Assembly (NCBI GenBank): GCA_013265495.1
Contig: MU057640.1
Span: 248,001-312,000 of the forward strand
Length of the DNA: 64,000 bases
Direction of reading: 5' to 3'
Source of the DNA: Vicugna vicugna
Lineage: Eukaryota
Each line of letters opens with the position of its first letter. Within the stretch, counting starts at the first letter, position 1. The position numbers were made by a program, and so were the translations under genes. Below, piece after piece: positions 3,001-53,565 of the stretch. The notes below the pieces were generated by a model. It saw only the letters and a program-made list of their open reading frames with translations, was not told the DNA's origin and made no database searches.

Positions 3001-4009
3001 GCCATACAAGAAAGCAAATGTAGATAAATCAGCTAAAATATTATTAAAAATCCAGGGAAAGAAAGGAGTAAGTTTAAAAAAAAAAACAACACTATTTACA
3101 AAACAGTACTTAAGACTTCAACCCTGTATTTGTAAAAAAAAAAAAAAGTCAAATTCATATATTCTAATTAAAACTATATTCATCTACACAGAGAAAAATG
3201 CCTTGAAGATTATGCAACAAAAATGTCTACACTGGTTAGTAATGATGGTGGAATTATGGGTGGTACTTAATGTCTTCTTTATAGGTTGCTCTATTTTATG
3301 AATTTTTAAACAATGTTTTTGTAAAAGAAGGAGTGGTGAAACCAAGAAAGCTATTTCTATTTTGAATGATAGTGAAAGCCTGAAGAGAGTAAAAAGGCTG
3401 TTTTGTTTTTGTAGCGATAGGAAGGTAATAACGGATCTATTTTGGATCCATTCAGCTTGAGGTGTCACAAGGAACTAGGAAAGGAAAACAAGGAAATATA
3501 CATTCAGATTTTAGCTATTTTTTGCTCTGTTGACAGAGAGTAATAAAGCATACATTACAACACAACATACAAAAATTTCCTTTATTTTTAGCTTCACTTA
3601 ATGTAGCCACCACCTGATCAAAGTAATAAGACTTTTTTTCATTCATTTTAGAACGTGTACTTCTAAGAGGGCAACTAATAAAAATTGTGTAGGTTGAAAT
3701 ACATTTTGTACTTACTTACAAAGCTGCCTTAATGAATTAGCTCTGTTTGGAATAGTCTGTACCAGTGTTTTCTCTGGCAAGTTAACCTTGTCCAGCCTCC
3801 CTCACTACCTTCATCCCAACCTGGAACAAGCAAACCAACAGTCATCCACCCACTATGGGCAGATAAAAGACTTTAAATGACTATAAACTATAAATAAACA
3901 CCCTCTTGATGATCTTGTGAAGCCCCATATTAGATTCATTCACAATGAGAAGTATTTACCCTGAAAGAACACAGTTGGCCTAGAGGAGGTAACATTATAA
4001 AAAACATAC

Positions 4010-4170
4010 CCCATTAGAAGCTTTCTTCTTTGCTTTCCATTCATCCAGTTGTGCCTTTGTCTTTGCATCAACTTTAACAAGTAGCTTCTTCTCTCCAATC
4101 TGCAGGTCATGTAATAACCTGAGTGCACGGAGGGTAGATTCAGGCTCCTTATACTCACAGAATCCGAAGG
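4010..4170 (-). CDS. RBM25: RBM25 exon 6 (161 nt; (A)FGFCEYKEPESTLRALRLLHDLQIGEKKLLVKVDAKTKAQLDEWKAKKKASNG), RRM C-terminal part; gene continues beyond left edge
   Basis: Translation matches RBM25. Acceptor ttgctag|CC and donor GGG|gtatgt. The phase-1 entry agrees with exon 5. Confidence 0.96.
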
Positions 4171-4384
4171 CTAGCAATGGATGTAAAGAATTAGTGAAGT
4201 ATCAATGCAATTATGAAAGATGAAAAATATTTATGAAAAATTGAAATCATCAGAGACCAAATATTATAATACAAGGATTATTTGTGTCATTGCTCCTCCT
4301 TTTCCTTCAATTATCTTTGATAAGGATTTCACTTTAATTCTAATTTTTAAAAAATTTTTATTGAAGTATAGTTGATTTAAAGCA

Positions 4385-22139: not shown

Positions 22140-23649
22140 AAGCAATACCAATAATTCTAGTTAGTGGGAATATTATGTTCTTTTTATTTTCTCAAGTTTC
22201 AAAATTCAAAAAAAGTAGGAAAAAGCTGTTCAAAACTTTAAAGAATCGATCAAAATCCTCTTATGAATACCAGTGGTAGTATCAGAAAAAAATATAAAGG
22301 GATGATAAAAAATACACAGAATATTTTTGTAAGATGTTAAAAACGTTCAATGATTACTTTTGCATCCACAGTGTAAGAGTCAATATAATTTTTCTCTAAA
22401 GCATGTGTAAATGAAAAAGGTATATAGCTAATTTGCCTGTAGCCAAAAAACTCGAAAATCCCAGGCTTATATTAAGTCTCAAGTAGTTAACGCAATGTTA
22501 AAATAGACTCATTTTTATTTTGAAAATATACTTAGAGCCTTAACACAGTGGAAAAGCAAACCACAAAACAAGTAGTCAAAACTATCATTAACATATGGTG
22601 CCTATATGCAACAGTGGGATAATAAAAACACTCTCTTCTGAAAAGTATTTGGGTACCTTACCAAAAAAAAAGAAAAAGAAAGGGAAAAAAAACCATTTTG
22701 GGAACCCAAAAAGGTAATCTGTTAACCTCAAGAAGATGAATTATTTAATAATAAAAGTATCAGTTAACATCATAATTTACTTCTGTTTACAAAAGCTTTC
22801 AACATACATTATCTCATTTAATCTCCCAAATTATCTGGTGTAGATATATTGTTCTCCTTTAACAGATGAAGCAGCTGACTCGTCCAAAGGAACACAGTAA
22901 GTGAGTAGGGTCTCCAAGGATCCCCTCTGTCCTGAAATTACCAATCCAAAGGCTGTTTTGGCTTATCACAACGCCTGTTTCTAGTAATAACATACCAATG
23001 AGAAACTTACTAAGGATTAACTTCGACTTTATTAAAATCTATTCAGAGTACACAAGAAGAAATTTTAGAGTCACCATTAGGCTCTTATACTTCACTTAAA
23101 ATTCTTAAATAACAAATATTATCAGTTAATATGGACTAAATTACTTGAATGCCTTTTTAGATCTCTGAATGTTTTTGTTAATAACCTTTTAAAAAATTAA
23201 AGCTCCCAAGACAATATAAAATTGTTTATACACTACTGCAACTACCTAATTCATACTATAGCAGTCTGGTGCAAGAGGAGTCCAATCTCCTCCCTCCTTT
23301 GGTTGGCTCCACTCTGCCCAATATCAAAATGGCTTTTCCATGGTAATATAAACCCACATCACATAACCTCAAAATAATCTTCATACTCCTAGAACTCTTT
23401 CAAAAAATGTATTTAAAAAATAGTATTGAAAACCAAAGAAGGATGAGAATGAAGCACCATATTTTAACGTGGAGCTTGCATCCGCTAGAGTCAACAGAGA
23501 CACAGTTTACTATAACCTCCAGTGGAGGAAGGCGGCAGGACCACAACACTCATCACAATCAGACAAACAAACCAACCTGGGGGTGGGGGGGAGTACTAAA
23601 AAAAAAAAAAGTGGGCAGTAGCAAAATTGAACTAGGGGGTGGGGAGGGC

Positions 23650-24510
23650 AGTTCACCCGGTGGCGGGCTTTAGATGACCAAAGAGGAAGGGAAAGAAATC
23701 AGTTGGTGGCCAGCTCCCCCGCTAAAAAGGGTGGGCGCTGGCCGGCTTCTAGGTAAATTCTGGGACAAGTGTATCCTAGGCCCCGAATATCTACCGTAGG
23801 GCTTCCGCAAGCTAGAGTTAGAAAGGGGTCTCCGAGAAGGGCTCCCCAGGAGCGGACCAATCGTTTTGTGGCAAACGTGAAGCCCAGAAGGGCCGAGTCC
23901 ACTCTGGCGGACAGTGAAAAGGAAAGGGAAAGTGGGCGACAATGCAAAGAGGAAGGCTGTGGCAGTAGGTCCGGCCTCCACGGGCTCCTGCTGGGCCCAT
24001 TGGTTTTCGAGGCCTTACCGAAGTGGAGAAACCTAAGCCTCGTGCCACACGCATTCAGAGGCGTGAACTCACCCGCCGCTGAGGAAACGGTACTGTCTTC
24101 GCGGTCTTCCGGGCTCCAGGTTACGAGTGGGCTCCACCAGTTCGAGGTTTCTGCGCGCCGCTCGCCGGGAGACTGGTTTCAAAGGGCCTACTCACACAGG
24201 CCGCAAATGCCGCCGCGCTGTGCGGGGAGCTTATGGAGGTCTTCCTATTGCCCGGCGTGCACTGCGGCCGGGGGCGTGGAGAGGAGGATCATAGAGAAGA
24301 GCATATATAGATAGTCTTCACTGTTGGCTAGGAATCACCACGCAGTGGCGAATAACCATAGAGAAGGACCGCCTAGTCGGGGCTAGAAAGGCTCGATCTG
24401 TAAATTACAACCCACTCTGCCATTTTTGATTGGAGCTGATTGGATCTTATAATTACGCGACGCCATCTTGAGGTCAAGGTTCCGGCTGGGCACGGCGCGA
24501 GGGCTGTTAG
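23650..24510. promoter_or_regulatory. CpG island / RBM25 promoter with two CCAAT boxes (gattgg 24428-24433, 24438-24443) and a YY1-like CGCCATCTT (24461-24469)
   Basis: Sharp rise in GC and CpG against an AT-rich background; motifs read directly. Confidence 0.8.
24073..24263 (-). other. RBM25: RBM25 non-coding exon 1 (5' end approximate)
   Basis: Lies in the CpG island. Donor CGG|gtgagt at 24073/24072. Resembles the mammalian RBM25 5' UTR as recalled. No minus-strand ATG inside. Confidence 0.75.
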
Positions 24511-32801: not shown

Positions 32802-33625
32802 CAGAATATCTGAATAGACATTTTTCCAAAGAAGACATACAGATGGCCAACAGGTACATGAAAAGATGCTCATCACTAATCATCAGGGAAATACAAATCA
32901 AAACCACAGTGATATATCACCTCACATTAGTTAGAATGGCTATCATCAAAAAGACATGAGGTAAGAAGTGTTGGTAAGAATGTGGAGAAATCGTGCACTG
33001 TTGGTGGGAATGCAAACTAGTGCAGCCACTATGGAAAGCAGTATGGAACATCCTCAAAAAATTAAAAATAGAACTACCATAGGATCCAGCAATTTCACTT
33101 CTGGATATTTATTCGAAGAAAATTAAAACATTAATTCAAAAAGATATATGCACCCCCATGTTCATCGTAGTGTTATTTATGATAGTCAAGATATGGAAAC
33201 AACCTAGATGTCCATCACTGGATGAATGGATAAAGAAGATGTGAATGAAATATTATTCAGTTATAAAAATAATGAAACCTTGCCATTTGTGACAACATAG
33301 ATGGACCTTGTGTGCATTATGCTAAGTGAAGTAAGTCAGACAGAGGAAAACAAATACTATATGCCTTCACTTTTATGTAGAGTCTGAAAAACAAAAGAAA
33401 ACAAAACCAAGCTCAAAGATGCAGAGAACAGATTGGTAGTTTCCAGAGGTGGAGTTTGAGGGTGGGTAGAATGATGAAGGTCCAAAGGTACAAACTTCCA
33501 GTTATAAAATAAATAAATCATGGGGATGTAATATACAACATTGTGACTATAGTAAATAATACTGAATTACATATTTGAAAGTTTAAAATAAATCTTAAAC
33601 TTTCTTATTACAAGAAAAAATTGTA

Positions 33626-35116
33626 GCCGCGGCTCCTGAGATTTGGCCAGGCCGTTGTCGCCTTCGCTGTCGCCGCCGCCGCCATGGCTCAGTACAAGGG
33701 TGCAGCGAGCGAGGCGGGCCGCGCCATGCACCTGATGAAGAAGCGGGAGAAGCAGCGCGAGCAGATGGAGCAAATGAAGCAGAGGATCGCCGAGGAGAAC
33801 ATCATGAAATCCAACATTGACAAGAAGTTCTCTGCACACTATGACGCCGTGGAGGCAGAGCTCAAGTCCAGCACTGTGGGTCTGGTGACCCTGAATGACA
33901 TGAAGGCGAAGCAGCAGGCACTGGTGAAGGAGCGGGAGAAGCAGCTGGCCAAGAAGGAGCAGTCGAAGGAGCTGCAGCTGAAGCTGGAGAAACTGCGAGA
34001 GAAGGAGCGCAAGAAGGAGGCCAAGCGGGAGATCTCCAGCCTGTCCTTTACACTGGAGGAAGAAGAGGAGGCAGGCGAGGAGGAGGAAGAGGTGGTCATG
34101 TATGAGGAGGAGCTGGAAAGGGAAGAGGTCACCACAAAGAAGAGGAAACTGGGGAAGAATCCAGATGTGGACACCAGCTTCCTGCCTGACCGAGACCGGG
34201 AGGAGGAGGAGAATCGGCTCCGGGAAGAGCTCCGGCAGGAGTGGGAAGCCAAGCAGGAGAAGATCAAGAGCGAGGAGATTGAAATCACGTTCAGTTACTG
34301 GGATGGCTCTGGACACCGGCGAACAGTCAAGATGAAAAAGGGCAACACAATGCAGCAGTTCCTGCAGAAGGCACTGGAGATCCTGCGCAAAGACTTCAGT
34401 GAGCTCAGGTCAGCAGGAGTGGAGCAGCTCATGTACATCAAGGAGGACCTAATCATACCCCACCACCACAGCTTTTACGACTTCATTGTCACCAAGGCAC
34501 GAGGAAAGAGTGGGCCTCTCTTTAACTTCGATGTTCACGACGATGTGCGGCTGCTCAGTGACGCCACAGTGGAGAAGGATGAGTCGCACGCAGGCAAGGT
34601 GGTGCTGAGGAGCTGGTATGAGAAGAACAAGCACATTTTCCCCGCCAGCCGCTGGGAGCCCTACGACCCTGAGAAGAAGTGGGACAAGTACACGATCCGG
34701 TGAAGGTGGAGGTGCACGGTCCCCCTTTCCCCGCGGCTCCAGGACTCTGGGCACCTGGCCCTCTCTCTGAGACAGGATGGGCCAATCATCTGCTGCCCCG
34801 GCGCTGTCATTACTGCTTTTTTCTTTTATGATAAAGAAACGTCCATGTCAGTTGGAGCACCTGCACTGTTTCATTGAAAAAAATTTTTTTATCGAGATAA
34901 AACTCGCATAATGTGAAATTCACCATTTTGACCACTGGCAAGTGTACCATTCAGGGTTGTTTAGTACATTCACACTGTTGTGAGTCACCCCAAAAGGAGA
35001 CCCCACATCTGTTAGCAGTACCCCCCAGCCCCTCGCACCCCCAGACTACTTTCTGTCTGGATGGATTTGCCTGTTCTGGAAGTTTCGCATAAATGGAATG
35101 ATATGAAAAAAAAAAA
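33626..35116 (+). pseudogene. FAM50A: Processed (retrotransposed) copy of FAM50A mRNA: 58-nt 5' UTR, ORF, ~400-nt 3' UTR, poly-A; may be a functional retrogene rather than a pseudogene
   Basis: No introns. Poly-A at 35106-35116. Identical 14-bp TSD AAGAAAAAATTGTA at 33612-33625 and 35117-35130. It interrupts a contiguous L1 3' end. Confidence 0.93.
33684..34703 (+). CDS. FAM50A: Intact intronless FAM50A (XAP5) ORF, 339 aa, in a retrocopy (candidate retrogene; expression unknown)
   Basis: [20 protein letters not shown]...WDKYTIR matches FAM50A in sequence and length. Kozak gccgccATGg; no stops or frameshifts. Confidence 0.9.
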
Positions 35117-36382
35117 AAGAAAAAATTGTAACTATATATGGTGATGGATATTAACTAGTCTTATTGTGGTGCTTATTTTGCAGTGTATACAAATACTGAA
35201 TCATTATGTCACACACCTGAAACTAATATAATGTTATATGCCAATTATACCTCAGTTTTAAAAAATGACTTGGGAGATGTTGTCTCTTCCATTTTCTAGA
35301 AGAATTTGTGTGGAATTGTGTAGAATTAGTATTGCTTCTTCATTAAGTGTTTGGTAGAATCCAGCCGCAAAGCCATCTGGGCTTGGAATTGTCTTTGTGG
35401 GGAGGTTTTAAACTAAAATTCAACTTAATGGATAAAGGGTTATTTAGGTTGTTTCTCCTTGAGTCACGTTTGGCAGTTTGTGTCCTTTAAGGAATTCGGC
35501 CATTTCTTACAAGTAGTAAATTTATTGACATAATGTTATTAATAATATTTCTTTATTATTATTTTATTGTATATAGGATTTATAATGGTTTTCTTCCATT
35601 TCATAATGGTTTCTGTGTGTTTTCTTTTTCTTTTTTCTTTTTTTGTTAAGTCTAGATATAAATTTATCTTTTAAAAATCCTTTCAAGGAAACGTCTTTTG
35701 GATTATTTTCTCTTTTGTTTTCTATGTCATTGATTTCTGCTCTGATCTGAATTATTTTCTTCTCCCTGTTTATTTTGGATTTAACTTGCTCTTGTTTCCT
35801 AACATCATAAGATGGTAGCTTAAATAACTGCTTTGAGACCTTTATTCTTTCTGAGACAAGCATTATATTCTACCAATTTCTCTCTAAGCATTGTGTTTAT
35901 TTCTTGATTTTTCATTTTCATTTAGCCCAGAACTTTCTAATTTCCCTTGTGGCTTCTTTGACCAAAGCATTGTTTAGAAGTGCATTATTTAATTTCCAAA
36001 TATTTGCGGATTTTTCAGATATATTTCAGTTATGTATTTCTAGTTAATTCCATTGTGGTCAGAGAAAATATTTTATATGACTTCAATACTTCTAAATTTA
36101 TTGGGACTTGTTTTATTGTCCAACAGAATTTAGCTTGATGAGTATCCTGCGGGCACTTGAAAAGAATGTGTATTCCACTGTTGCTGGGTAATGTCACTAT
36201 GTCAAGTTGGTTGATAATGTTATTCACATCTTCCATATCCTTACTGATTTCCTTCCTATTTTTTGTGTCAATTATTGACAGTGATATAAAAATTTCCAAC
36301 TCTATTTGTGGATTTGTCTATTTCTCCTTTCAATTCTTTCAATTTTTGCTATCTATCTGTCTATCTATCTACACACACATAT

Positions 36383-45379: not shown

Positions 45380-46200
45380 CCAAAACAACGCGCAGAAACC
45401 TGCGGAAAACACAGTCAGGGCAAAAACTCCAAGTCCCAAAATGCTCGAAGGCCTGTTTCTGCCGCCTTCTCGCAAGAGCAGTCTCTTTAGTACTGGGAGT
45501 TGTAGTTACTCAGGGGCTTCACTTCCAGGGTGTTGGGGAAAACGCACCTTCGGAGAACTACAATTCCCAGGAAGCTGTGCGCGCAACTCTCCGCCCTCGC
45601 TGGCGTCAGGCTCCACCCCTCCCGCTCCTCCCTCTCTGGGCTGCACCGCTCACGCCTTCCTGTTAGTCGGAGCTGGGAGAAGTTCACTCGAATCAGCTGA
45701 TCCTAACTGACAACAGGAGGAGAGGAAGCCCGGAAGGCAGCGAAGGAGGTGGGGGGCGGAGATGGAGATGAGGATGGATCCGCCGGTGCCCTGAGGGACA
45801 GCCCCCGCCTCCACCGGCGCCCTGCGGTCCCCCGACGCCGCCTCGCTGCAGCAGAGCTGCTCCATGGTGGGGTCCCCCGGCCGCCGCGGGCGGGGAGGGA
45901 AGGGCACGGCCCTGCGCCGGGCCAGCGATAGCCCTGGAGCTCCCTCTGCCCCGGGGAGGCAGGGGGGGCAGGAGCGGCTGGGGTGGGGGTGGGGTGGTAT
46001 AAACAATGGATTCGGCTCTGGCCTCTGCCAGCGTAGGGGGGATTTGGGGGGACCTTCTTTGTTCTTAGACTCTGCTACTGCCCCTCGGGTTGTGGTGGTG
46101 TTGTCTGGGAGGAAGGAAGGGTGAGGAATCCTCGGCTGGAGAGAGGCGTCGGGGTTGGGAGCCCGCGTGGGCAGATGGTTTGTTTGGTCAGGTGGGCGGT
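45380..46200. promoter_or_regulatory. CpG island / ZFYVE1 promoter with ZNF143/THAP11-type ACTACAnnTCCCA motifs
   Basis: GC/CpG-rich. Motifs at 45426-45444 (degenerate), 45494-45506 (minus) and 45557-45569 (plus). Confidence 0.85.
45620..45748 (+). other. ZFYVE1: Probable ZFYVE1 non-coding exon 1 (TSS approximate)
   Basis: Immediately downstream of the promoter motifs. Candidate donor GAG|gtgggg at 45748/45749, followed by G-run-rich intron-like sequence. Confidence 0.5.
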
Positions 46201-47668
46201 GAGGTATCTTTTTGAAGGTTGGTTTCATATTTTTTTCAGTTGTGACAAATTTTGATTTTCGTTTCCGTTGTGGGAGCTGGTTGGGCACATCTGTAGTTAG
46301 GGTGTAAATAGGGTCTCCTAGTCACTCCCTTAGCCTTCCTTGTTTATCTAAAAATAAGATTGGTGGATTGATTACTGTAGGGGAAGAGTGAATACCTGAA
46401 AGGAGGGCTTTACATTTCCTTGTGGAGTGTTAGAATGGGTGTCAAGGCTAAGGGGAATTAGAGATATAATTGTAGAAGTGACAAAATCCCCAGTTATCTT
46501 TTTTCTTTCTTTTTTTTGGAAGTTATTTTTAAGTTGGATTTTGAGTGACAAAGAAAAATTATTTGCTTTAACTCACTGCAGGCCTGGCTTTGCTGTGGGC
46601 CTTAGTGGAGGAATTCTGTCTCCTGTTGCTCCCTTTTTTTGCACTTAGAGGAAAGGACAAAAGGAAGTACAATAATTGTTTTTAAACATGGAATGGTGAC
46701 TCTTGTTTCCAGGTTTAGAGTCCTTAATAGGCATCTTTCTAGCATCGAAACAATCCAGTTACAAGGGTAACTGTATCTGCCCAGGACTTTGATGGAGCTA
46801 AAATTTATTATTCTTCTTTAGCTTTTTATAAGTGTTTTTCTTCACCTTTCCCAGTTATGGGGTGCAGGTCGGGGTGCAGAGGTTTGTCCCTCCAAAAACT
46901 ATTTGCTTATTAGTGCTTGTGATTCTGAATTTAATAACTGAATGAACAGAGAATTTCTGTCTGGGAAATAAATCGACAAAGTCTCTTAAATGCCTTGAGC
47001 CTAGAGGTGGTGGTTGTTTTTAAAAGGAGGAGCCATAACCACAATTTTGAGAAGAAATTTCTAGGATCAGAATGAGCCAGCATAAGTTTTACAATCAAGA
47101 ATGAGATTTCTCTGAGGAGTTTTGACCTCATATTTAATCACAACCTTTCTTTCTTTTTTTTTTTTAAGGTGCACTGCTGTTTTTAGATGAGTGAAATCCT
47201 TTTCCTTCTTTTATTCTAGGTATCCCCTGAAATAGTGACTTGAGGCTGGATTATATTGCAAAGCTCCTGACCACTGTCTTTCATTACCAAGACCTTGTGG
47301 CTGAGGCCCAATTCATGAGTCCATCTCAGTGCACCCGTCAACTCTCTCTCAGATAGCCATAAAAGACCCTTTCAAGTTAATTTTGACCACGTATTTCCCT
47401 GCACTTTATGGAGGATGAAACTATCAAACCAAATCAACGTTGCTGCTGATACAGGAGCATGGGAGGCAGAAAATTAAACATTTAAACAGTAATGAATGTG
47501 TGAAGAATTCTAACAGGCCACTGAAGGTTTAAAAAATAATTTTTTAAAAAAAAGTGTTCAGTACCCTGTGGAAGTTCTGTGCAGTCTTCAGGCTCCCAGC
47601 TTTTGTCCTCACTTCTGGGGAAGGCCCAGGAACGTTATATGGTGGGTGATTTCCTTACCAGTCTGAAT

Positions 47669-48151
47669 ATGAGTGGCCAGACTTCCCCAGCAGAGAAGGG
47701 CCTGAATCCGGGGCTGATGTGCCAGGAGAGCTACACCTGCAGCGGGACTGAGGAAGCCGTGTTTGAGTGTGATGAGTGCTGCAGCCTGCAATGTGTCCGC
47801 TGCGAGGAGGAGCTCCATCGGCAGGAGCGCCTGAGGAACCATGAGCGGATCCGGCTCAAAGCAGGCCACGTCCCTTACTGTGACTCCTGCAAGGGCCCCA
47901 ATGGGCATTCCCCAGGTGTGAAGCAGAGGGCGGTCGTGAGGTGCCAGGCCTGTAAAATCAACTTGTGCCTGGAGTGCCAGAAGAGGACTCATTCCGGGGG
48001 TAACAAACGGAGACACCCCGTTACTGTGTACCACGTCCCTGATGTCCAGGAGTTCCTGGAGGAAGAGGGGATGGATGAGGAGGCCAAGAGGAAGAAGATG
48101 ACTGAGAAGGTTGTGAGTTTCCTCCTAGTAGATGAAAATGAAGAAATTCAG
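47669..48151 (+). CDS. ZFYVE1: ZFYVE1 (DFCP1) first coding segment, 161 codons, Cys/His-rich zinc-binding (B-box-like) N-terminus; exon probably starts at 47220
   Basis: MSGQTSPAEKGLNPGLMCQESY...VSFLLVDENEEIQ matches ZFYVE1. Donor CAG|gtaagc at 48151. Candidate acceptor ttttattctag|G at 47220. The next exon was not found in the window. Confidence 0.94.
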
Positions 48152-53164: not shown

Positions 53165-53288
53165 TTTTTAAGTGGGGGAGGGAGGTAATTAGGTTTATTT
53201 ATTTATGTATAAGGAGGTACTGGGGATTGAACCCGGGACCTCATGCATGCTAAGCATGTGCTCTATCACTTGAGACATACCCTCCCCC
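53165..53288 (-). mobile_element. vic-1-like SINE
   Basis: Reverse-complement family sequence with A and B boxes. Confidence 0.88.
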
Positions 53289-53357
53289 AAAACAAATTCT
53301 TTAAGAACTGAATTCACACAATAAAGAGAGATGAATCTCCTTTGATCCTATCTAACA

Positions 53358-53565
53358 CAGTAGTTCTCCCTGGGAGTGAGTTTGCTCCCCCAGGGCACAT
53401 TTGCAAGGTTAGGCGACATCTCTGGTTGTGACAGCTAGGGGATAGGGGATTGTGTGCTAGTGAGTAGAGGCCAGGGTGCTGCTAAATGTCTGAAAGTGCA
53501 TAGGGCAGCCCCCACACAAAGAATTACCTGGTACAAAATGTCAATAGTGCTGAGATTGAGAACTG
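53358..53565. mobile_element. MER20 (hAT-Charlie) DNA transposon
   Basis: cagtagttctc...agaggccagggtgctgctaaa...caaaatgtcaatagtgctgagattgagaactg resembles the MER20 consensus as recalled. Confidence 0.8.

Follow-up and report, generated by a model that had tools for sequence, protein, structure and literature searches.

The feature in the window, the 64-kb stretch of vicuña DNA that we analysed, is most likely a young processed retrocopy of FAM50A made by LINE-1 (L1), near-silent and neutrally evolving, whose gene-like features were inherited. Positions 33626-35116 are a full-length, intron-less copy of the FAM50A cDNA with an unbroken open reading frame (ORF). We consider the retrocopy young because it has only six differences in 1481 nt from its parent, and because its target-site duplication (TSD) and A-tail are undecayed.

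The whole insertion, on the plus strand, spans positions 33612-35130. Two 14-nt copies of the TSD (AAGAAAAAATTGTA) flank it on the left (33612-33625) and on the right (35117-35130), and they are 100% identical (14 out of 14 nt). The retrocopied 5' untranslated region (UTR; 33626-33683) is 58 nt long, GC- and CpG-rich, and collinear with parental exon 1 from position 46891 of contig C8878. It leads into a start codon in a Kozak context (gccgccgccATGG) and an intact ORF of 339 codons plus stop (33684-34703). The 339-aa product matched the Pfam XAP5 domain (PF04921) over residues 197-337, with an E value of 3.6e-56 and a score of 190.2 bits against a gathering cut-off of 25; the predicted protein belongs to the XAP5/FAM50 family, with the XAP5 domain at its C-terminal end. 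The retrocopied 3' UTR (34704-35105) stops at the parental cleavage site. Its final ~230 nt consist of an interspersed repeat that is present already in the parent's terminal exon, as judged from the many dispersed 73-85% matches in the assembly to insert positions ~1250-1480. It is followed by a poly(A) stretch of 11 consecutive A residues (35106-35116), the first of which may be templated, and this tail passes into the A-rich TSD. Because the parental genomic DNA reads TGTTTC at that point instead, the tail is non-templated. The retrocopy contains 62 CpG sites at an observed/expected ratio of 0.57, compared with 0.23 for the whole window, and this high CpG content looks like mere youth. Thus, every element that the earlier note had listed (an intronless 339-codon ORF, a GC-rich 5' UTR, a Kozak context, a 3' UTR, a poly-A tail, and 14-bp TSDs) is present in the sequence, and the retention of CpG sites against a CpG-poor background that it had described is borne out by the two ratios.

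The parent gene lies in the same assembly (C8878:46891-53410) and has 13 exons and 12 GT-AG introns. Insert positions 1-1481 are collinear with the 13 parental exons, the last of which (exon 13, C8878:52999-53410) corresponds to insert positions 1069/1070-1481. This collinearity with GT-AG-flanked exons of a same-assembly parent shows directly that the copy is intron-less. The parental promoter sequence is absent from the retrocopy. The parent adjoins ATP6AP1 and GDI in an Xq28-like synteny (ATP6AP1-GDI-FAM50A), and the copy sits beside ZFYVE1, in agreement with the out-of-X copying proposed in the earlier note; we presume the parent to be X-linked and the ZFYVE1 locus to be autosomal, by analogy with the human gene order.

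Comparison with the parental cDNA showed 1475 matches at 1481 positions. Four of the six differences are private to the window copy, and two are common to it and a second retrocopy. The private differences are C>T at 33644 and G>A at 33649, both of them CpG transitions within the 5' UTR, an A>G change in the coding sequence at 34029 that causes K116E and is the only private coding change, and a copy-specific letter G in the 3' UTR at 34803. The shared differences are a synonymous C>T change at a CpG in the coding sequence (34670; cDNA position 1045) and a difference in the 3' UTR at 34797; all six positions refer to the plus strand. This divergence corresponds to an age of 1.2-1.5 My at a substitution rate of 2.2e-9 per site per year and of 2.7-3.4 My at 1e-9, which suggests that the retrocopy was inserted roughly 1-3 My ago. 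The earlier claim of an independent young copy of the multi-exon FAM50A gene is supported.

The insertion split the 3' region of an old L1 lying in sense orientation on the plus strand. The left part of this host element (33300-33625) has at least 39 other matches in the genome, with 76-82% identity, and the right part (35131-35265) comprises the terminal ~135 nt of this L1. The two flanks abut within 0-17 nt in 8 out of 11 other L1 copies examined, which is the structure of an empty site; the right-flank match is absent in the other three. At the left edge of the TSD, the bottom strand reads TTTTTTCTT/GT, a T-rich stretch whose dinucleotide past the presumed nick differs from that of the L1 endonuclease consensus (TTTT/AA). 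The sequence shows that a mature, fully spliced, polyadenylated FAM50A mRNA was reverse-transcribed and inserted in the 3' end of the old L1 fragment, with duplication of 14 nt of target; we attribute this to LINE-1 target-primed reverse transcription. The copy would have brought along 58 nt of 5' UTR without the parental promoter. The polyadenylation signal, the 339-codon ORF with its Kozak context, and the CpG content would then be inherited features, too recent to have decayed. In all likelihood, the copy has little or no transcription and evolves neutrally, and its CpG sites appear to be starting to decay as they do in methylated DNA.

The insertion site falls within an interval of ~21 kb that separates the divergent promoters of ZFYVE1 and of a gene that we presume to be RBM25. 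A CpG island at 23501-24500, the presumed RBM25-like promoter, lies ~9 kb from the insert (GC 0.57 and CpG observed/expected 1.0 at 24001-24500), and another at 45501-46000, the presumed ZFYVE1 promoter, lies ~10.4 kb downstream of it (GC 0.68, CpG observed/expected 0.62). No CpG island or L1 promoter adjoins the insert, these two islands, 9 and 10.4 kb off, being the nearest. The earlier note had placed the site between RBM25 and ZFYVE1. For ZFYVE1 this holds: a plus-strand coding exon from the B-box region (47660-48100) matched an ANCHR-like B-box (E 3.8e-11) and was 91-93% identical to cetartiodactyl ZFYVE1 proteins. For RBM25, the gene name is presumptive: it is based on the known RBM25 sequence and on an RRM-like exon on the minus strand (3998-4201) with a sub-threshold Pfam match (E 0.009), the only match obtained when 115 minus-strand ORFs at 1-24.6 kb were compared with Pfam. 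Attempts to name the neighbors by protein-cluster search returned generic B-box clusters alone (scores ≤0.87), and a PDB sequence search returned only weak matches to U2AF65, RBM19, and ZNF295.

We then considered selection. Relative to the parent, the coding sequence carries one nonsynonymous change and zero or one synonymous change, the latter being common to the second retrocopy. Because there are just two coding differences, dN/dS has no power for the window copy, and the comparison of synonymous with nonsynonymous changes that the earlier note had suggested could be carried out (one of each, the synonymous one shared) but yields a ratio that is powerless either way. In a neutral simulation (4000 trials), the ORF stayed intact in 66% of cases; since the probability of intactness given neutrality is ~0.66 at such an age, the intact ORF is uninformative on function. 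The frequency of change at CpG sites was ~11 times that at the remaining positions (Fisher p 0.04, or 0.006 with inclusion of the shared difference at the CpG of cDNA position 1045), a comparison based on two or three events. Of the four private changes, two are CpG-to-TpG/CpA transitions in the 5' cluster; as far as the sequence can tell, these are a signature of germline methylation and not of a protected promoter. K116E is a charge reversal, and all six other members of a seven-sequence alignment, which includes the C6962 copy described below, its three Camelus orthologues, Camelus FAM50A, and human FAM50A, have K at this position. The step from an intact ORF to a candidate retrogene is not supported, given the 6 differences in 1481 positions, the 66% neutral intactness, the CpG decay, and a second intact, neutral-looking copy. 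Our sequence analysis yielded no evidence of function for the window retrocopy; selection is possible, but a test for it would have no statistical power.

Further copies of FAM50A occur in the same genome. The second full-length retrocopy (C1645:508798-510285) has an intact 338-aa ORF, its own flanks, and its own TSD of ~10 nt. It carries 10 private substitutions and three deletions; its coding sequence has four nonsynonymous and three synonymous changes plus a one-codon deletion, a pattern indistinguishable from neutral (p 0.15). It derives from the same parent mRNA and has an open frame like the window copy, but it is ~2.5 times more diverged. On the parental sequence, its 5' start lies ~25 nt upstream of that of the window copy, and the two copies also differ in their cleavage site. 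A segmental duplication was considered as the origin of this copy and rejected, as the flanks are dissimilar and the TSD, 5' start, and cleavage site are separate. Because the C1645 copy is also young, full-length, and ORF-intact, intact FAM50A retrocopies are not special in this genome.

The third retrocopy (C6962:5679195-5680237), which Camelus also has, has an ORF of 332 aa, 89% identity to the parent, and a dS of 0.29. Its pairwise dN/dS is 0.15, and the probability of an intact ORF given neutrality is 0.00025. It shares the parent mRNA and an open frame with the window copy but, in contrast to it, is old and constrained. The C6962 copy thus shows purifying selection and is a better retrogene candidate than the window copy; this constraint indicates that the lineage is able to retain FAM50A retrocopies. 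There is also a FAM50B-like intron-less gene on C10751, the FAM50B orthologue of this genome, with 335 aa, 75% nucleotide identity, and a dS of 0.73 to the parent; its coding sequence is CpG-island-like (observed/expected 1.09). The presence of this separate gene and the match of 1475 out of 1481 positions to the FAM50A cDNA confirm that the window copy is not FAM50B, as had been stated before.

NCBI and UniRef list a protein identical to the 339-aa product, E116 included, from a contig of 96,118,724 bases, so at least one public annotation has a protein-coding gene model for it. The matches listed in the present assembly all lie at ≤23.7 Mb on their contigs, and the insertion is probably present in a second assembly, possibly from the same animal. 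The exact protein was found on one contig only and in no Logan assembly, where absence from assemblies does not equal absence. DNA sequencing runs with four organism labels contained 0.73-0.78 of the sampled retrocopy words, a share that is reduced by repeat collapse in contigs and, when low, does not mean absence. The k-mer expectation was 0.90 for a genome without the window copy and 0.74 for a genome with the parent but neither the window nor the C1645 copy. Reading the presence of the retrocopy from these shares was rejected as uninformative. RNA runs contained 0.31-0.36 of the words; the parent mRNA alone would give 0.66.

We regard it as quite unlikely that the window copy is an incipient functional retrogene, that is, one transcribed (e.g., in male germ cells, where the X is silenced) from a recruited promoter or its own CpG-rich 5' end and encoding a FAM50A-type spliceosome-associated protein like FAM50B. 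X-derived retrogenes are often functional and testis-expressed. The family offers a precedent for such out-of-X copying in FAM50B, a therian autosomal retrogene from X-linked FAM50A that is imprinted and testis-high in human (PMC3141237). FAM50B and the window copy have the same parent, an origin by mRNA retrotransposition, an intron-less XAP5-domain ORF, and a location outside the parent locus. FAM50B, however, is ancient, with its own promoter and documented expression, whereas the window copy is ~1-3 My old and has no visible promoter. A functional reading would also fit the intact ORF with its parental Kozak context and polyadenylation signal, the older C6962 copy with its purifying selection (dN/dS 0.15), and the gene model for the exact protein in NCBI and UniRef. 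Yet none of the tests run favored it. Intactness is expected from youth (P 0.66), the copy came without a promoter and has its nearest CpG islands at a distance of 9-10 kb, CpG decay has begun in the 5' cluster, and the sole private coding change, K116E, reverses a charge where all other aligned sequences have K; a weak further point is that the protein comes from one contig and no Logan assembly. Slightly more improbable still is that transcription of the window copy has already begun, with male germ cells as the most plausible site, and that it is the newest in a recurrent camelid series of out-of-X FAM50A copies. The series would in that reading comprise the ancient FAM50B, the constrained, camelid-specific C6962 copy, and two copies younger than ~7 My.

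A near-silent, L1-made retrocopy, the explanation we prefer, closely resembles L1-generated processed pseudogenes and the recent full-length retrocopies (retroCNVs) catalogued in canids and equids in the available text of PMC9435743 and PMC10249811: a full-length cDNA, a poly(A) tail, a TSD, near-identity, and an ORF intact by youth, with no essential difference in the window copy. It is compatible with a segregating retro-copy-number variant that is not fixed, a matter of population status only, which we hold possible if rather doubtful. The insertion is very young, such recent retrocopies are often polymorphic in those same accounts, and the DNA word shares of 0.73-0.78 fail to demonstrate the copy in any run; however, these shares are lowered by repeat collapse and unreadable as absence, and the E116 protein on the 96-Mb contig places the insertion probably in a second assembly, whether or not from an independent animal. 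An old retrocopy homogenized with its parent by gene conversion is very improbable: nothing specific speaks for it, identity is even across the 12 exon junctions and both UTRs, and the TSD and poly(A) tail are undecayed, although conversion can refresh neither. The near-identity to the mRNA might also suggest an assembly artefact or cDNA contamination, but we put the chance of this close to nil, given that the 64-kb window around the insert has no N, the insert's exact 14-nt TSD splits an L1 whose halves abut in paralogues, it carries four private substitutions, and the same protein occurs on another public contig.

Our literature search on FAM50A retrocopies found no published account of the window insertion, and a search on camelid retrocopies returned nothing relevant. 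As it stands, the retrocopy is of small import, being one more recent L1-made copy. Its main use would be in the phylogeny and population genetics of camelids, where it can serve as a clean insertion marker that is datable; it is also a trap for FAM50A read mapping and annotation. The product of its exact ORF is already listed by NCBI and UniRef. If expressed, it would be a rare X-to-autosome retrogene observable within its first few million years, before a selective signature accumulates. For the question of retrogene birth, the C6962 copy is a more promising object than the window copy.

The insert (window 33626-35116, plus strand) carries an uninterrupted open reading frame (ORF) of 339 codons at 33684-34703 on the plus strand, whose product matched XAP5 in Pfam (PF04921; E = 3.6e-56). 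Its GC-rich leader is 58 nt long and ends in gccgccgccATGG; a 3' UTR and then 11 A lie downstream of the ORF, and identical 14-nt direct repeats (AAGAAAAAATTGTA) are located at 33612-33625 and 35117-35130. The insert contains 62 CpGs, with an observed/expected ratio of 0.57 versus 0.23 for the 64-kb window. The earlier note, made from the sequence alone, had described just such an intronless FAM50A ORF with a GC-rich 5' UTR, a 3' UTR, a poly-A tract and target-site duplications, and with CpGs retained against a CpG-poor background; it was right on every point open to checking.

With the insert as query, we searched the assembly that contains the window (2.03 Gb, 12,405 contigs). This search returned five kinds of match: the window copy, another full-length copy on contig C1645 (99% identity), copies on C6962 (89%) and C10751 (75%), and a series of short matches on C8878 (96-100%). 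The C8878 matches correspond to the 13 exons of a FAM50A gene at C8878:46891-53410, with GT-AG boundaries in 12 out of 12 introns. When spliced, this parent gene gives 1481 nt that align collinearly with insert positions 1-1481, beyond which the parent genomic sequence reads TGTTTC and the insert reads A's. Directly upstream of the parent, and in its orientation, lie exons matching an ATP6AP1-type gene (V-ATPase subunit S1/Ac45) and a GDP dissociation inhibitor (GDI). The locus carrying these ATP6AP1-type and GDI-type exons (C8878:35400-45390) includes 137 N. From the order ATP6AP1-GDI1-FAM50A, that of human Xq28, we infer that the parent is X-linked in this animal.

A separate, intron-less FAM50B-type gene encoding 335 aa is present at C10751:2850229-2851236 (L005:1501-2508, minus strand). 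Its dS is 0.73, and its coding sequence is very CpG-rich (136 CpG, observed/expected 1.09), as would fit a CpG-island gene such as human FAM50B. The proposal that the window copy is an independent, young out-of-X retrocopy and not FAM50B is supported. We also observed that the FAM50A 3' UTR ends in ~230 nt, cleavage region included (window ~34880-35105; C8878:~53180-53410 in parent exon 13), with 73-85% identity to dozens of loci elsewhere in the genome. Because of these matches, the 3' end of parent FAM50A can be traced to an interspersed repeat, as its polyadenylation signal probably can.

The 326-nt left flank of the insert matched at least 39 other genomic places at 76-82% identity and is an old L1 3' region. 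Among the 11 other L1 copies retrieved as loci, the right flank (~135 nt) trailed the left flank by 0-17 nt in eight and had no match in three. The contiguity in those eight copies indicates that the insert interrupts a single L1 copy precisely where the 14 nt are duplicated, the structure expected from target-primed reverse transcription. The nick context on the bottom strand, TTTTTTCTT/GT, is T-rich and non-canonical. CpG islands are located at 23.5-24.5 kb and 45.5-46 kb of the window, a ZFYVE1 exon at 47660-48100 (plus strand; 91-93% identity to named cetartiodactyl ZFYVE1 proteins), and an RRM-like exon, with a sub-threshold Pfam match and presumably from RBM25, at 3998-4201 (minus strand). 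Because of these islands and flanking exons, the insert can be placed between a pair of presumed divergent promoters, at distances of 9 and 10.4 kb; it lies upstream of ZFYVE1 and in the same orientation.

Insert and parent cDNA disagree at 6 out of 1481 positions, with no indels. Of these differences, four occur in the window copy alone: two CpG transitions in the 5' UTR (cDNA positions 19, C>T, and 24, G>A), an A>G change at position 404 producing K116E, and an A>G change at position 1178 in the 3' UTR. At position 1045 (window 34670), a synonymous CpG site, and position 1172 (window 34797), the window and C1645 copies share a letter that the assembled parent lacks; at position 1045, the old C6962 copy has the parental letter. 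These two sites represent parent-side changes, an old allele of the parent gene or a CpG site hit in parallel, and the agreement of both young copies points to parallel CpG decay or parental polymorphism. With substitution rates of 2.2e-9 and 1e-9 per site per year, 4-5 substitutions in 1481 nt give an age of 1.2-1.5 My and 2.7-3.4 My, respectively (Poisson limits ~0.3-3.6 My at the faster rate). CpG positions had changed ~11 times more often than others (Fisher p 0.04; p 0.006 counting position 1045), the pattern of germline-methylated DNA. This decay, in very few events, speaks against a protected promoter in the 5' CpG cluster.

The earlier note had proposed the ORF-intact copy as a candidate retrogene. 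The window copy shows one synonymous and one nonsynonymous difference from the parent (Nei-Gojobori), a count that gives dN/dS no power. Our neutral simulation of the parental coding sequence allowed for hypermutable CpGs, a transition bias and indels amounting to 12% of substitutions; at window-copy divergence, 66% of 4000 trials retained start codon, frame and stop codon alike. Intactness is therefore uninformative. At the K116E site, lysine was present in all six other sequences aligned (the C6962 copy, its three Camelus orthologues, Camelus FAM50A and human FAM50A).

The C1645 copy (C1645:508798-510285, L002:1498-2988, minus strand) is likewise young and full-length. We found no similarity between its flanks and the window; it has its own duplication of ~10 nt (AAGTTCTCTC), and relative to the window copy its start lies ~25 nt more 5' on the parent sequence and its cleavage site 2-3 nt more 3'; because of these features it is an independent retrotransposition event. 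Its private changes comprise 10 substitutions and 3 deletions, and its frame is open for 338 aa, with A11E, R84W, E102K, P259S and a one-codon deletion. Its four nonsynonymous and three synonymous changes plus that deletion did not differ from the neutral expectation (p 0.15), and a neutral ORF of this age stays intact in ~27% of simulations. Being intact yet neutral-looking, it shows that ORF-intact young FAM50A retrocopies recur here without need for selection. The window copy is most likely a processed retrocopy that evolves neutrally and is silent or nearly so; that it is a functional retrogene is improbable, being unsupported by the tests run and mildly contradicted by its CpG decay and this sibling.

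The older retrocopy, at C6962:5679195-5680237 (L003:1524-2522, plus strand; 89% nucleotide identity), has 82 mismatches in 999 aligned coding positions, and its 332-codon frame is still open, an outcome with a probability of ~0.00025 in the neutral simulation. Pairwise dS is 0.29 and dN 0.043 (dN/dS 0.15), and the synonymous excess is significant even with just half of the synonymous changes assigned to this branch (p 7e-5). Its CpG observed/expected ratio is 0.58, as high as the parent's, amid CpG-poor flanks. By eye, the 3' UTR gives way to unrelated, L1-like-looking sequence ~20 nt past the stop codon. Among named proteins, the nearest come from Camelus dromedarius and C. ferus; they are annotated 'Protein FAM50A' (94-95% identity) and stop 32 residues early. 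Because they share its derived residues and 7-residue deletion, this copy probably arose before this animal and Camelus diverged, and the genome is probably that of a camelid other than Camelus. The C6962 copy is a better candidate than the window copy for a camelid-specific functional retrogene. The exact C6962-copy and C10751 proteins were both absent from a 15-billion-protein collection.

FAM50B is an autosomal therian retrogene derived from X-linked FAM50A; in human it is expressed from the paternal allele, with the highest level in testis (PMC3141237). Of this history the window copy shows the first step and none of the later ones: no promoter of its own, CpG island or constraint was seen. 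It belongs to a well-known kind of element. In canids and equids, recent full-length retrocopies with intact ORFs are reported to be common and in many cases polymorphic (PMC9435743, PMC10249811); our literature search found no paper pairing FAM50A with retrocopies.

DNA sequencing runs under four organism labels contained 0.73-0.78 of the words sampled from window 33350-35400. RNA runs (reproductive-system or other metatranscriptome labels) contained 0.31-0.36, about half of the 0.66 that the full parental mRNA alone gives by k-mer count, probably reflecting partial contigs or the FAM50A of a slightly diverged relative. Such shares do not show whether a run contains the window copy: a genome without its insertion still gives 0.90, and one without either young copy 0.74. 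NCBI and UniRef list a protein identical to the 339-aa product, E116 included, from a single contig of 96,118,724 bases, which suggests that the window copy is also present and annotated in a public assembly at chromosome level.
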